The position numbers and the translations under genes were made by a program. Below are positions 7,063-11,067 of a stretch of 64,000 nucleotides of DNA, piece by piece (position 1 is the first letter of the stretch; every line of letters starts with the position of its first letter). The notes under the pieces were generated by a model. It was not told the origin of the DNA, made no database searches, and was given only the letters and a program-made list of their open reading frames with translations. Location of the stretch: NCBI GenBank assembly GCA_021157525.1, contig JAGGWK010000037.1, forward strand, positions 34,867 to 98,866, given 5' to 3'. Source of the stretch: Candidatus Cloacimonadota bacterium. Its GTDB lineage: Bacteria > Cloacimonadota > Cloacimonadia > Cloacimonadales > TCS61.

Positions 7063-7146
7063 CGGCAATTCACAGGATTCAGGGTGTAAATTCCATTGAC
7101 ATCAGAAGCCTTGCTCATTTCCCTGCTGACCGAAAAGGAGATGTTT

Positions 7147-8220
7147 ATGAAGTATAAAATCATTTTGTTCCTGCTCTTTGCAGCAAGTCTTTGGGCTGAT
7201 ATCCCCCAAGGTTATTATGATGATGCAGCAGGGCTTTCTGGTACTCAATTGAAGGCAGCACTCCACAATATCATTGATGATCATGTGGAATATTCCTATA
7301 ATGATTTGCGCGATTTTGTGTTGAAAGACACTGACGAAGATCCCAACAACACTAATAATGTGATTCTGCTTTATACCGGTTGGAGCTACCCGAAATCATC
7401 TTTTGGCGGCGGTGCGTCAGACTGGAATCGCGAGCACACATGGGCAAAATCCCATGGCAATTTTGGCACATCAGCACCGGCAGGCACGGATGCACACCAC
7501 ATACGACCCACCGATGTAACCGTGAACTCCGCCCGAGGTAATCTGGATTTTGACAACGGCGGCACCATTTACGTTGATGGTGATGGCGCTACGGAATGCC
7601 GTCGGGACGACGATAGCTGGGAGCCTTGGGATGAGGTAAAAGGTGATGTAGCCAGGATGCTGTTTTATATGGCTGTGCGCTATGAAGGCGGCGGGGGAGA
7701 GCCCGATCTGGAACTTACAGACACCGTTCCTTCATCTCCCAATTATGAGCCTCTTCACGGCAAGATGTCCACGCTCCTGGCCTGGCATCAGCAAGATCCT
7801 CCCAGTGCCTGGGAAGAGCTGCGTAACGATAAAGTCTATTCCTATCAGGAAAACCGCAATCCCTTCATCGATCACCCGGAATATGTTTCTTTAATCTGGG
7901 GTGGAACCGCTGTACAGCCGGAAATTTGCAGCCAGCCGATGGTAGCTACCGCCTATCCAAATCCCTTTAACCCCTCAACCACTATCAGCTTTTCCTTGGA
8001 TGCAAAAATTGCCGGACAGCAACCGGTTAGGGTTGAGGTGTTCAATGTCAAAGGTCAGCAAATCAAGGTCCTGATGGTAAATTCTGAGATTTCCGGATCG
8101 GGCTCTGTTACCTGGGATGGTACCGATAACACCAATGCTACGCAATCCAGCGGAGTTTATTTCTATCGCGTTACGTCCGGAATACAGCAAGCCTATGGCA
8201 AAGTGTTGATGATCAAATAG
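7147..8220 (+). CDS. Secreted endonuclease I family nuclease with a T9SS-type C-terminal sorting domain
   Basis: Signal peptide MKYKIILFLLFAASLWA. Endonuclease-I-like motifs WNREHTWAKSHG and DAHHIRPTDVTVNSARGN. C-terminus AYPNPFNPSTTISFSL...GVYFYRV resembles the Por/T9SS type A sorting domain. Confidence 0.75.
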   Translation: MKYKIILFLLFAASLWADIPQGYYDDAAGLSGTQLKAALHNIIDDHVEYSYNDLRDFVLKDTDEDPNNTNNVILLYTGWSYPKSSFGGGASDWNREHTWAKSHGNFGTSAPAGTDAHHIRPTDVTVNSARGNLDFDNGGTIYVDGDGATECRRDDDSWEPWDEVKGDVARMLFYMAVRYEGGGGEPDLELTDTVPSSPNYEPLHGKMSTLLAWHQQDPPSAWEELRNDKVYSYQENRNPFIDHPEYVSLIWGGTAVQPEICSQPMVATAYPNPFNPSTTISFSLDAKIAGQQPVRVEVFNVKGQQIKVLMVNSEISGSGSVTWDGTDNTNATQSSGVYFYRVTSGIQQAYGKVLMIK

Positions 8221-8425
8221 CTGAAGTAAAAGCCTGATGGCCACGCAGGAGCTTTTCCACTTCGTTATGAGATAAGCTGAAGATTGACATTGCAGCACCA
8301 GTTAAAACTGGTTAACGAGAAAGTAGCAAATATCTACGGCCACCGGCTTTTTGACCTGTGAAATTCCGAAAGAGTATTTTACTTGGTCAGCCGATGATAT
8401 GCGGAAAATTATACCCTGAAGGGCA

Positions 8426-8583
8426 GATGCTGTTTTTGCAAATCACGAATTGCGAAATTAACGATATAAGATTAAGTTTGATTTTGAAATACACTCACTT
8501 TTTACGGAACGACCTTCTGCATAACCATAAAAAAATGGCGGGAGTGACGGGACTTCCCGACTCGTCGGGACAATCTTCTGCGT
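8426..8583. repeat. Direct repeat copy A (~158 bp), ending in a degenerate tRNA-Asp 3' half
   Basis: Aligns with 8943..9101 at a 517-bp offset, with 6 substitutions and 1 indel by eye. Confidence 0.9.
8536..8583 (-). pseudogene. Degenerate copy of the tRNA-Asp 3' half (variant anticodon-stem segment ACGCAGAAGATT + replaced T-arm + acceptor 3' strand + CCA)
   Basis: The minus strand reads ACGCAGAAGATTGTCCCGACGAGTCGGGAAGTCCCGTCACTCCCGCCA. The last 18 nt are identical to the 3' end of the intact tRNA-Asp at 9116..9192. Confidence 0.8.
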
Positions 8584-8615
8584 GTGAAATGTTCCAGGAA
8601 GGTTTATTGAATCGC

Positions 8616-8870
8616 TTACATTTGTTGCTTTTTCATAATGAGATTCTCAATGTAAATTCTGCTTTTCTGTCGTTTGATTTCATTTTCACGCTTCATTGCC
8701 TCCCCTTTTGTATCGTACTCTTCATGATATAGTATCTTCCAGGGAATGCCGGCTTTCGTTGATTTCGACCATCCGGCATTATGCCGTTCCAGGCGCGATG
8801 CCAGATCATGCGTATGACCAATATAATATCGATCGATCGATCGAGAATAAAGAATGTAAGTAAAGAACAT
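8616..8870 (-). CDS. Small stand-alone GIY-YIG nuclease-family protein (84 aa)
   Basis: FFTYILYSRSIDRYYIGHTHDLASRLERHN...EAMKRENEIK matches the GIY-(x10)-YIG, conserved Arg and distal Glu/Asn pattern of URI/GIY-YIG domains. Confidence 0.8.
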   Translation of the reverse strand: MFFTYILYSRSIDRYYIGHTHDLASRLERHNAGWSKSTKAGIPWKILYHEEYDTKGEAMKRENEIKRQKSRIYIENLIMKKQQM

Positions 8871-8942
8871 TGCAAATCCATTATAAATGTTGTTGTGAAT
8901 ATTGCTTCAATGTCGCGTTTATTTATAAGAACGATGCTTTTT

Positions 8943-9101
8943 GATGCTGTTTTTGCAAATCACGAATTGCGAAATTAACGATATAAGATTAAGCTTGATT
9001 TTGAAATACACTGACTTTTTACGGGACGACCTTCTGCGTAACCATAAAAAAAATGGCGGGAGTGACGGGACTTCCCGACTCGTCGGGACGACCTTCTGCG
9101 T
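8943..9101. repeat. Direct repeat copy B (~159 bp), ending in a degenerate tRNA-Asp 3' half and abutting the intact tRNA-Asp
   Basis: See copy A. This is the same sequence shifted by 517 bp. Confidence 0.9.
9054..9101 (-). pseudogene. Degenerate copy of the tRNA-Asp 3' half, 62 bp downstream-phased from the intact tRNA
   Basis: The minus strand reads ACGCAGAAGGTCGTCCCGACGAGTCGGGAAGTCCCGTCACTCCCGCCA. The first 12 nt and last 18 nt are identical to the real tRNA. The T-arm is replaced by a TCCCGA/TCGGGA hairpin. Confidence 0.8.
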
Positions 9102-9115
9102 AACCATAAAAAAAA

Positions 9116-9192
9116 TGGCGGGAGTGACGGGACTCGAACTCGCGACCTTCTGCGTGACAGGCAGACGTTCTAACCAACTGAACTACACCCCC
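9116..9192 (-). tRNA. tRNA-Asp (anticodon GTC), CCA encoded
   Basis: Hand-folded 77-nt cloverleaf: GGGGGTG TA GTTC AGTTGGTTA GAAC G TCTGC CTGTCAC GCAGA AGGTC GCGAG TTCGAGT CCCGT CACTCCC G CCA. All stems pair except an A52-C62 mismatch in the T-stem. Confidence 0.9.
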
Positions 9193-9373
9193 GTGTTTCA
9201 AAACCACTCTATTCACAAGACGAAGCACTTTTTAAGGCCCCCCTTTTTTTTGTCAAAACATTTTTCTTCCCTGTCCTTACTTTTTTCCTGAGCTTCAACA
9301 CAAATTGGAGGATTTGCTTTACAATATGTTTATAGTACAAGATTTTGCGCCAAAATAGATAAACGAGGTCATT

Positions 9374-10255
9374 GTGAAAGATAGAGTTATTCGAGGACTC
9401 AGTGCAGGTTCCTTTGTTCGTTTTTTTGCTGTAGATGTAACAGAAACCTGTAAAACAGCACAGAAAATACACAAACTTACGCCCACCGCTTCTATTGTGC
9501 TGGGGCGGCTACTGGCCGCAGGCTCCATTATGGCAGCAGATTTAAAATCCTCTCAAGACATCCTTACACTTAAAATAAACGGAGATGGCCCTATCGGCAG
9601 TGTCCTTGTTACTGCCCGGGGAAATGGTGCGATAAAGGGCTATGTCCAACATCCCGAGGTGGATCTATTTAATAGTCAGCTGGGATATCATGACATTCCT
9701 GCTGCATTAGGAAACGGGGTACTTACCATCATCAAAGATATGGGGCTGAAGGAGCCCTATGTTGGTCAGGTGGAGCTGCGTTACGGCGAGATAGCTCAGG
9801 ATCTGGCGTACTACTACGTACAATCTGAGCAAATTCCCACCTCTGTTGGCCTGGGAGTTTTGCTGGATGGAAAAGGTCTGGTGCGCCGTGCTGGCGGGTT
9901 TATGGTTCAGCTCATGCCTAACACTCCTCCGGAAGTGATAGACGGCATTGAGGCAAATCTTCATTCATTTCCCAATTTTACCGACATGATGGATTTGGGC
10001 CACGAGATCGAAACCCTCATCCGGGACTTCATCCTCAAATCCTTTTCGCCCCGCATTCTGGATACGAAACCCCTGGAATATCGCTGCGATTGTTCCCGGG
10101 ACAAATTCCTCAGCGGCATCAAGCTTTTGGGGAAGGATGAGCTTTCTCAGGCCATCAAAGACAATGAAACCATCACGGTGAACTGCCACTTTTGTAACAC
10201 ATCCTACCACTTTGAACCCAAGGAGATTAAGAAACTCATCGAGGAATTGCAATGA
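9374..10255 (+). CDS. hslO: Redox-regulated chaperone Hsp33
   Basis: C-terminal zinc centre CDCSRDKF...CHFCNTSY and an Hsp33-like N-domain. GTG start. Confidence 0.88.
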   Translation: MKDRVIRGLSAGSFVRFFAVDVTETCKTAQKIHKLTPTASIVLGRLLAAGSIMAADLKSSQDILTLKINGDGPIGSVLVTARGNGAIKGYVQHPEVDLFNSQLGYHDIPAALGNGVLTIIKDMGLKEPYVGQVELRYGEIAQDLAYYYVQSEQIPTSVGLGVLLDGKGLVRRAGGFMVQLMPNTPPEVIDGIEANLHSFPNFTDMMDLGHEIETLIRDFILKSFSPRILDTKPLEYRCDCSRDKFLSGIKLLGKDELSQAIKDNETITVNCHFCNTSYHFEPKEIKKLIEELQ

Positions 10256-11067
10256 TCCAAAATACTTCGAGGCAAAAACCCGGAACATTTCATCATAAAA
10301 AAAGTCTGGGCCAGCATTTCCTGAAGGATACTAACATTGTGCGTAAAATCGTGAGCCTGGCGAACATTGCCGATGCTGAAAAAGTGTGGGAAATCGGCCC
10401 GGGAAAGGGCATTCTCACCGCCGAGCTGCTGGCAGCCGGTGCATCCCTCACCTGCTTTGAAATCGATGACACTCTCTATCCTCACCTGGATGCAACTTTT
10501 GAAAACACCATTAAGTTGATAAAGCAGGATGTTCTGAAAGCTGATTGGGAAGCCCTTTTTCCCGATGGCCCGGTGAAGATTGTGGCGAACTTGCCCTATC
10601 AAATCACATCCCCATTCCTCTTTCGAGTGGCAAAATATGCCTTACACTTTTCCGCTGTGGTGGTGATGATCCAAAAAGAAGTGGCTCAGCGCATTACTGC
10701 ATCCTGTGGCACAAAAGAATACAGCACACTGTCATTAAAGATGCAATATTATTTCGACGTTACCTACGGCTTCACGGTGAAACCAAACGTCTTTGTCCCG
10801 CCGCCAAAGGTCGATTCCGCTGTCATCCTGCTTTCTCCCCGGAAAAATCGCCCACCTCTGGCAGATGAAGCCCTCTTTTGGCGCATCGTTGAAACCGCCT
10901 TTGGTAATCGCCGCAAAATGTTACGGCGAAATCTGCGGGCTTTGGTGACAAAGGAACAATTGGAGGTAGTGCAGCAGATATCCGGGATTGATCTCTGCAG
11001 ACGAGGAGAAACCCTTTCAGAAGCAGAATTCATCCAGCTGATGGACGCCGTGCTGGGTCAGAGATAA
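10252..11067 (+). CDS. rsmA: 16S rRNA (adenine1518/1519-N6)-dimethyltransferase
   Basis: KKSLGQHFLKD and EIGPGKGILT motifs of KsgA/RsmA. ATGA overlap with hslO. Confidence 0.92.
   Translation: MIQNTSRQKPGTFHHKKSLGQHFLKDTNIVRKIVSLANIADAEKVWEIGPGKGILTAELLAAGASLTCFEIDDTLYPHLDATFENTIKLIKQDVLKADWEALFPDGPVKIVANLPYQITSPFLFRVAKYALHFSAVVVMIQKEVAQRITASCGTKEYSTLSLKMQYYFDVTYGFTVKPNVFVPPPKVDSAVILLSPRKNRPPLADEALFWRIVETAFGNRRKMLRRNLRALVTKEQLEVVQQISGIDLCRRGETLSEAEFIQLMDAVLGQR

Follow-up and report, generated by a model that had tools for sequence, protein, structure and literature searches.

Ssn nucleases, GIY-YIG proteins with a single domain and a length of about 94 amino acids (aa), bind the NTS hairpin (CGTCATTCCCGCGMAVGCGGGAATCYRG) only as single-stranded DNA, the only kind of DNA that they cut, and cleave just upstream of it; Ssn target hairpins, of the form TTCCCGCG...GCGGGAA, flank the nuclease's own gene (Chenal et al. 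2025, Nat Commun, PMC11893778). Besides forming this NTS-ssnA-NTS arrangement the repeat multiplies elsewhere too, and the authors liken the system to insertion sequences and REP/RAYT and propose domestication; what Ssn-type nucleases naturally do outside Neisseria is left open, and the paper is silent on tRNA (PMC11893778). Here we examine a locus of Candidatus Cloacimonadota bacterium, lying in a 64,000-nucleotide (nt) stretch of contig JAGGWK010000037.1 that was analysed as a whole and is called the window below, in which a tRNA-Asp gene heads a short tandem array (positions 8426-9192, minus strand). A unit of this array is a partial tRNA 3' half with part of the T arm replaced by a hairpin, and one unit carries a GIY-YIG nuclease gene. 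The closest known system is Ssn/NTS, and the tRNA-linked family looks like an undescribed relative of it. A nuclease-hairpin pair locked onto tRNA genes offers a testable clue to how Ssn-type pairs spread and how they affect genomes.

The head of the array is an intact tRNA-Asp(GTC) with an encoded CCA (9116-9192, minus strand), the one true tRNA called by ARAGORN, which scores 68.1 bits against Rfam RF00005; a search of Rfam with E up to 10 over positions 7500-10500 returned nothing besides this tRNA and left the pseudo 3' halves unmatched. The last 18 nt of the tRNA (GTCCCGTCACTCCCGCCA) are present exactly three times in the 64 kb, each time on the minus strand (8536, 9054 and 9116), and not once in 100 shuffles. 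Adjoining the tRNA is a gene-less unit of 62 nt (9054-9115, minus strand) made up of eight T residues (T8), ATGGTT, the fragment ACGCAGAAGGTCG, which equals the anticodon-stem 3' strand plus variable loop of the tRNA-Asp, the hairpin TCCCGACGAGTCGGGA (9073-9088; 6-bp stem, 4-nt loop), which stands where the T arm would have its 5' strand and loop, and a 19-nt tRNA tail, AGTCCCGTCACTCCCGCCA. Then comes the gene-bearing unit of 518 nt (8536-9053, minus strand), where T8 and ATGGTT are followed by a half-site, a 79-nt leader, a 72-nt 5' region, the open reading frame (ORF), a 32-nt spacer and another fragment, hairpin and tail. The half-site, ACGCAGAAGGTCGTCCCG (9022-9039, minus strand), holds the tRNA fragment and the 5' arm of the hairpin only: it stops after GTCCCG, and the leader joins it where the hairpin loop would start. 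The second full hairpin TCCCGACGAGTCGGGA lies at 8555-8570, 45 nt past the stop codon, and the third copy of the tail AGTCCCGTCACTCCCGCCA at 8536-8554 (minus strand). Removing from the 518-nt unit the 456 nt that separate two 18-nt repeats, ACGCAGAAGGTCGTCCCG, gives exactly the 62-nt unit. Last in the array is a truncated unit (8426-8535, minus strand), recognised by its alignment with 8943-9053, which has T7, ATGGTT, a degenerate half-site ATGCAGAAGGTCGTTCCG (8505-8522) and the 79-nt leader, and ends at CAGCATC, where it abuts unrelated DNA.

A sequence-only reading of this stretch had described the locus as direct repeats of 158 bp bracketing a lone nuclease gene next to a tRNA, and its description was accurate: global alignment of 8426-8583 with 8943-9101 (158 and 159 nt, period 517) gives 6 mismatches and one gap column, the intact tRNA, the 32-nt modules and the two 48-nt pseudo 3' halves lie where it had put them, and the GIY-YIG gene is indeed the only domain-bearing ORF between the repeats, with no integrase. 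(Tandem Repeats Finder, whose longest period is 500, missed the 517-nt repeat, which a separate repeat search reported.) Its view of 8426-8583 as an empty scar has to be given up: this segment is a truncated tandem copy and no excision scar, and its distal block, 8426-8535, is the truncated start of a further tandem unit.

Relation to Ssn/NTS and other known systems

The nuclease gene (8616-8870, minus strand), the only one of its kind in the window, encodes an Ssn-like 84-aa protein of which PF01541 covers residues 1-71 (E = 8e-15), a single domain with no DNA-binding domain attached. Across 36 homologues Y5, Y16, G18, R26, H30 and E62 vary hardly or not at all, and the catalytic Tyr/Tyr/Arg/His/Glu set is conserved. 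The family profile matches UPF0213 structures best (PDB 1zg2, E = 1.7e-13, and also 1ywl), followed by SLX1 (E = 8e-6) and I-TevI (E = 4e-3), and searches of NCBIfam, PADLOC and PHROGs gave no useful match. The enzyme belongs to the Slx1/UPF0213/Ssn-like single-domain lineage and not to that of the homing endonucleases; the sequence-only reading had thought of a homing-type cassette. Canonical Ssn proteins were fetched with a probe sequence, the validity of which rests on the exact NTS hairpins that flank the retrieved genes (L092-L095; L numbers denote individual loci). One of them, P0300, which has exact NTS at its gene, is 31% identical to the 84-aa protein (E = 2e-6), and hhalign aligns the family with canonical Ssn at 99.1% probability (E = 1.9e-18); the hidden Markov model of the family gives canonical Ssn 43-61 bits, as against 42-60 bits for UPF0213. 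The published criterion for Ssn is cd10448, or a match to N. meningitidis SsnA at E < 1e-10 (PMC11893778).

Inside the ORF there is a perfect palindromic (ATCG)4 tract (8828-8844, codons for SRSIDRY), in place of which the related strains L080 and L081 have TCGCTCGCTCGATCGA. Slippage by one unit would shift the frame, and the tract could therefore act as an on/off switch for the gene. A scan of the locus for promoters and terminators gave nothing exceeding shuffles; just upstream of the ORF a TTGAAG-19 nt-TATAAT arrangement, with a spacer beyond the range of the scan, was seen by eye only.

The likeness to Ssn/NTS extends beyond the enzyme, which in both cases is a single GIY-YIG domain of about 85-95 aa without a DNA-binding domain. 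Both have an oriented hairpin with a TCCCG...CGGGA core flanking the nuclease's own gene on the same strand, and gene-less copies of the hairpin clustered nearby; the TCCCGA/TCGGGA hairpin, which the sequence-only reading had noted and left uninterpreted, resembles the target hairpin of Ssn nucleases (PMC11893778). In contrast to NTS, the hairpins here are grafted into partial tRNA copies in which they replace an arm, and they form head-to-tail arrays anchored at a tRNA gene, whereas canonical NTS are scattered or alternate in orientation (L093/L094); moreover, only the palindromic core is shared, and the published motif has no match here. The loci L093 and L094 themselves (Melioribacteraceae 4301-Me, JBGORM010000001.1, 203-215 kb) contain two identical canonical ssnA genes 6.4 kb apart, each in a dense cluster where two NTS variants (TGTCATTCCCGCG... 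and TGTCATACCCGCG...) alternate in orientation, so that canonical Ssn and the tRNA-linked family coexist in one bacterial family.

Other systems are less similar. As in the genomic islands and prophages that tyrosine or serine integrases place in tRNA genes, direct repeats of the tRNA 3' end bracket the insert, also at its far border, and the tRNA stays intact; unlike in these islands, the "island" measures only 0.06-0.5 kb, the repeat includes tRNA sequence 5' of the foreign hairpin, pseudo-units are also found upstream of the tRNA, and the array ends in a hairpin loop. We rejected an integrase-mediated island, as no tyrosine or serine recombinase gene lies between the repeats. SegB, a free-standing GIY-YIG homing endonuclease of phages T4 and T6, is likewise encoded in a tRNA cluster, and amplification of segments of this cluster has been connected with it in T6, but Seg proteins are phage-encoded, have DNA-binding domains of their own and cut double-stranded DNA, and their systems have neither a conserved hairpin nor partial tRNA copies (PMC13096335). 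Membership in the homing endonucleases (I-TevI, Seg) was likewise rejected for a protein that consists of an 84-aa domain only, is far closer to UPF0213 than to I-TevI and has no PHROG match. REP/BIME-RAYT and IS200/IS605 share with the present family a small enzyme gene flanked by its own hairpins, which also multiply without the gene, and recognition of a single-stranded hairpin; their enzymes have the HUH fold instead of GIY-YIG, and they lack a tRNA scaffold. With no IntI and no HUH enzyme, and GIY-YIG as the only gene of the unit, neither these elements nor an integron cassette can account for the locus, and a split tRNA was rejected as well. UPF0213 (E. coli YhbQ, B. subtilis YazA; PDB 1zg2, 1ywl) and eukaryotic Slx1 are of the same minimal GIY-YIG lineage, but UPF0213 genes are single-copy genes in a housekeeping context, and their GAKYT motif is absent from the tRNA-linked family. 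At the B. subtilis yazA locus we saw no flanking hairpins and no tRNA copies; there the gene lies between trmNF (tRNA m6A37 methyltransferase) and rsmI (L104), again placing the lineage near RNA-modification genes. Dunin-Horkawicz and colleagues reportedly made a remark in 2006 in line with this nuclease lineage having RNA-modification neighbours.

tRNA linkage, hairpins and copy number across the family

In a scan limited to one genome for each species, relatives of the protein are encoded on at least 423 stretches of DNA, the best 78 of which were retained as loci. Loci were picked by protein similarity, using a profile from a 13-sequence alignment (the 36-sequence alignment was too diverse), or, in a metagenome sample, by a motif that includes Asp-derived flanks. 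The 78 loci span Cloacimonadota, Ignavibacteriota, Calditrichota, Bacteroidota and others. Among the 56 that have at least 800 nt upstream of the gene, 44 have a tRNA gene on the same strand within those 800 nt, typically at a gap of about 50 nt. Bacteria have about one tRNA gene per 60-70 kb, and linkage by chance would therefore be expected in less than 1% of cases. Linked tRNAs are Asp in Cloacimonadota, Melioribacteraceae/Ignavibacteria, Calditrichia, Neomarinimicrobiota and some Bacteroidota, and Met, Gly, Leu, Ala, Lys or Val in other Bacteroidota; the last 18 nt of the upstream tRNA recur just 3' of the gene in 36 of 52 loci. The sequence-only reading had treated tRNA fragments and nuclease gene as one unit and had suggested looking for the cassette at other tRNAs. 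The same combination does occur at many tRNA loci, and instead of being confined to, and fixed at, tRNA-Asp it recurs at at least seven tRNA identities, each time with pieces of the neighbouring tRNA. In the metagenome sample, where the choice of motif already favours Asp-derived flanks, 31 of the 44 loci that could be evaluated lie next to a GIY-YIG gene and/or a tRNA-Asp, and some tRNA-Asp genes have a single gene-less unit and no nuclease gene. Among open-access papers we found no account, for these phyla, of a linkage between GIY-YIG and tRNA genes.

Viral contigs yielded one partial match only, and this near-absence argues that the family is not phage-borne; a plasmid collection contained UPF0213 genes only and no family members. 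The protein tree, whose short alignment cannot resolve descent by tRNA type from descent by host, mixes phyla within the Asp-linked group. One locus with four bacterial-type Asp pseudo-halves and a GIY-YIG gene in the style of Cloacimonadota is found in a bin assigned to a Woesearchaeota archaeon (L029, JAIPIC010000031.1), a placement that probably reflects misbinning.

Whichever tRNA they derive from, the partial tRNA copies carry a hairpin of consensus CG-TCCCGN-loop-N'CGGGA-AG (in the window, CG-TCCCGA-loop-TCGGGA-AG), whose asymmetric flanks give the element an orientation. A comparison of 106 distinct hairpins from the different loci shows an unvarying TCCCG/CGGGA core and co-variation at the sixth stem pair (A-T, C-G, G-C, T-A); 89 of them have loops of 3-7 nt, with a tail towards greater lengths. 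A strict pattern finds the hairpin beside the gene end in 53 of 76 loci, the misses being mostly long-loop, degenerate or truncated forms, as against a background of 6 in 226 kb of flanking DNA. What the hairpin replaces depends on the tRNA. It takes the place of the anticodon arm in Met, Leu, Ala and Val copies, frequently with an exact fit, and in Gly copies as well. In Asp copies the T arm has been replaced in its 5' strand and in most of its loop, and in Leu and Gly copies this arm can likewise be replaced in part or as a whole; in Leu/Gly copies of L035, L071 and L079 two hairpins stand for both the anticodon arm and the T arm. The sequence-only reading had seen here, in the tRNA 3' segments, the footprint of an element inserting into tRNA genes; the feature that stays constant is instead the TCCCGN...N'CGGGA hairpin.

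Units without the gene are common; besides that of the window there are, for example, five of 132 nt in L041 and others of 73 nt in the nearest relative. This relative, with an hsp33 product 72% identical to that of the window, has two gene-less units in one sample and at least four in another, plus two tRNA-Asp genes; a phage-type integrase gene is also present in it, about 3 kb beyond hsp33 and away from the tRNA array (L085, 7317-8065). In L015, L041 and L085 tRNA-Asp is duplicated inside the arrays. Five 120-nt units, each consisting of a tRNA-Leu 5' part and two hairpins, precede the real tRNA-Leu of L079, which is followed by two gene-bearing units, and pseudo-units stand upstream of tRNA-Asp too in L166, L170 and L184 of the motif-first sample. 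Several arrays (L008, L017, L033, L039/L044, L070) end inside a hairpin loop, right after the 5' arm, and the window half-sites at 9022-9039 and 8505-8522 are truncations of the same kind. The hairpin loop is a recurrent site of breaking and joining.

Number or identity of copies differs between populations as well. All five short metagenome contigs that we examined close on themselves, their ends overlapping by exactly the k of the assembler, with units of 518, 518, 518, 387 and 421 nt. The three 518-nt contigs are from three other samples and have gene products 98-100% identical to that of the window, and one of them (L001) differs from the window's 518-nt unit at 3 positions; the 387- and 421-nt contigs are from two more distant homologues. 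A contig of this sort stands for a free circle or for two or more tandem copies that are almost identical. The window array contains about 1.3 copies of the unit, whose overlapping parts differ, and would be unable to close at k = 141, which implies that copy number or copy identity is not the same in these populations, and copy-number variation of the 517-bp unit had also been raised in the sequence-only reading. A sister-sample contig with an identical hsp33 (L084) ends exactly after tRNA-Asp and T8ATGGTTA, where the repeat starts, and in 20 of the 78 loci a contig end lies within about 150 nt upstream of the gene, because repeats of this kind break assemblies. The resulting small self-closing contigs can be mistaken for plasmids or viruses. 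The same type of array is nonetheless present in long contigs, some of them whole chromosomes (L041, L079, L034), with names that suggest long-read assemblies.

Probable amplification at tRNA genes and its alternatives

Hairpin loops are identical in 66% of within-locus pairs and in only 0.9% of between-locus pairs, an indication that units arise locally. Local amplification fits better than integrase-type integration or the serial insertion that the sequence-only reading had proposed. We consider it probable, if far from assured, that the locus is a tRNA-Asp with a short tandem array of a nuclease-plus-hairpin cassette, amplified through nicking and repair by way of the tRNA-derived repeats. 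The protein would bind its hairpin when this is exposed in single-stranded DNA, during replication, heavy tRNA transcription or DNA uptake, and would then nick nearby, the candidate single-stranded target being ACGCAGAAGGTCG-TCCCGACGAGTCGGGA-AGTCCCGTCAC. Repair of the break could use the repeated tRNA-derived segments as homology, by unequal exchange, slippage, or excision and re-entry of a circle, with the outcome that units are duplicated, deleted, truncated in the loop or possibly released as circles. A location inside universally conserved tRNA sequence may serve as portable homology, permitting persistence and an occasional move to another tRNA gene or genome. Such a mechanism would give rise to arrays, gene-less satellites, within-locus identity of units, duplicated tRNA genes and breakpoints in the loop. 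By analogy with Ssn nucleases we infer that the protein may cut the hairpin as single-stranded DNA and that this cutting may drive amplification; it would then be a candidate nuclease for single-stranded DNA that recognises a new hairpin (TCCCGA...TCGGGA), and the range of Ssn specificities has been presented as a basis for future molecular tools (PMC11893778). A bolder version takes the units of 0.34-0.52 kb for autonomous self-amplifying mobile DNAs, whose nuclease of about 80 residues nicks the hairpin in single-stranded DNA, whose circles re-enter at conserved tRNA sequence and which leave gene-less satellites and duplicated tRNAs. We regard this version as rather unlikely; if true, no smaller mobile elements that encode a nuclease would be known, and in phyla related to Bacteroidota they would drive changes in the copy number of tRNA genes.

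Several observations weigh against amplification by an Ssn-like nuclease. The published degenerate SRM/NTS pattern, which found NTS at all four canonical Ssn loci used as control, has no match at the window locus and none near the gene in the 78 loci, and the protein has low identity to canonical Ssn (31%) and is equally close to UPF0213/YazA; because of the motif and of this equal closeness, we file the family as a sister variant of Ssn and not as a member. Predicted stability of the hairpin (DNA folding) is no higher than in shuffles (z ~0), and its significance rests on conservation. The cyclic contigs fit a tandem array and a free circle alike. The neat replacement of a tRNA arm by the hairpin is left unexplained by the mechanism. 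Finally, the gene is kept beside hsp33 and tRNA-Asp in several Cloacimonadota, among which its identity is 66-72%, as against 51-55% for hsp33 and 64% for rsmA; being better conserved than these it is under purifying selection, and conserved neighbourhood and high identity fit a long-resident, possibly host-beneficial gene as well as a selfish one.

These last facts would be expected of a domesticated host module, vertically inherited, that for example limits recombination with incoming DNA, as in Neisseria, or adjusts tRNA gene dosage, with the arrays as by-products. Essential absence of the family from viral contigs, duplication of tRNA-Asp inside arrays (L015, L041, L085) and the domestication already proposed for Ssn (PMC11893778) point the same way. 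Nonetheless we think such a module unlikely as the explanation, for other Cloacimonadota (L088-L090) have hsp33 with neither tRNA-Asp nor cassette nearby, the cassette is at different tRNAs in different lineages, gene-less units multiply alone (L041, L079) and there is no known phenotype; the idea is compatible with amplification by nicking and repair and does not exclude it.

Homing or serial insertion, in which the nuclease cuts empty tRNA genes, units are copied in separately from a donor and the tRNA 3' copy restores the gene, would account for the direct repeats of the tRNA 3' end that bracket the gene, for the occupation of seven tRNA identities and, as far as the weakly resolved tree goes, for the mixing of phyla in the Asp-linked group. 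It is quite unlikely nevertheless: the protein lacks a DNA-binding domain and has but marginal similarity to I-TevI (E = 4e-3), loops are common to a locus and different between loci, pseudo-units occur upstream of the tRNA too (L079, L166, L170, L184), several arrays end in the hairpin loop without a tRNA tail, and the intact tRNA stays beside the cassette, so that the site presumed to be the target survives. A clean tRNA-Asp site devoid of the cassette did not turn up in close relatives among the loci examined, in which no dedicated empty-site comparison was made.

Very improbable is an element acting at the RNA level, with partial tRNA and hairpin as a signal for processing or stability of the mRNA 3' end or as a tRNA-like decoy. 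The copies have no 5' acceptor strand and can therefore form no tRNA-like fold, they have no Rfam match and fold no better than shuffles, conservation of the stem lies in its sequence and not in co-variation, gene-less arrays lie upstream of tRNA genes, and canonical SsnA does not bind RNA (PMC11893778). This has to be set against a unit that is always on the sense strand just past the stop codon, a reading frame that in some homologues runs into the hairpin and ends in GGRPE or GGRPD, tails that keep CCA wherever the tRNA gene encodes it, and a T-run or terminator after each tail. The weakest explanation, an assembly artefact in which the repeat was mis-expanded or mis-collapsed, which the sequence-only reading had named as a way to refute its view, can appeal to short-read assemblies breaking here (L084) and collapsing the unit into cyclic contigs, but is hardly credible, because the copies differ at 7 positions (6 substitutions and one indel), L084 breaks precisely at the repeat start, and long contigs show the same arrays, the architecture recurring in dozens of independent assemblies, including whole chromosomes and very long contigs.

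Neighbouring genes and the T-stem mismatch

The neighbours of the array are ribBA, ribH, a secreted endonuclease I, hsp33, rsmA and gltX, and the hsp33 product is identical to one in a Candidatus Cloacimonetes genome bin. Directly adjoining the array is the endonuclease I gene (7096-8220, PF04231), the product of which has a type IX secretion C-terminal sorting domain; an exact look-up of this protein gave no match. The block of tRNA-Asp plus cassette (8426-9373 in the window, compared with L004, L006, L007 and L010) has opposite orientations with respect to hsp33 in two groups of Cloacimonadota genomes.

The tRNA-Asp of the window has a single non-standard T-stem pair, A52.C62, which the sequence-only reading had pointed out and which the Rfam alignment marks as well. 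It is common to the Cloacimonadota tRNA-Asp genes L010, L011, L015, L041 and L085, and tRNA-Asp of Melioribacter and Ignavibacteria has A52-U62 instead. The mismatch is a lineage trait of Cloacimonadota tRNA-Asp and not a sign of damage or decay.

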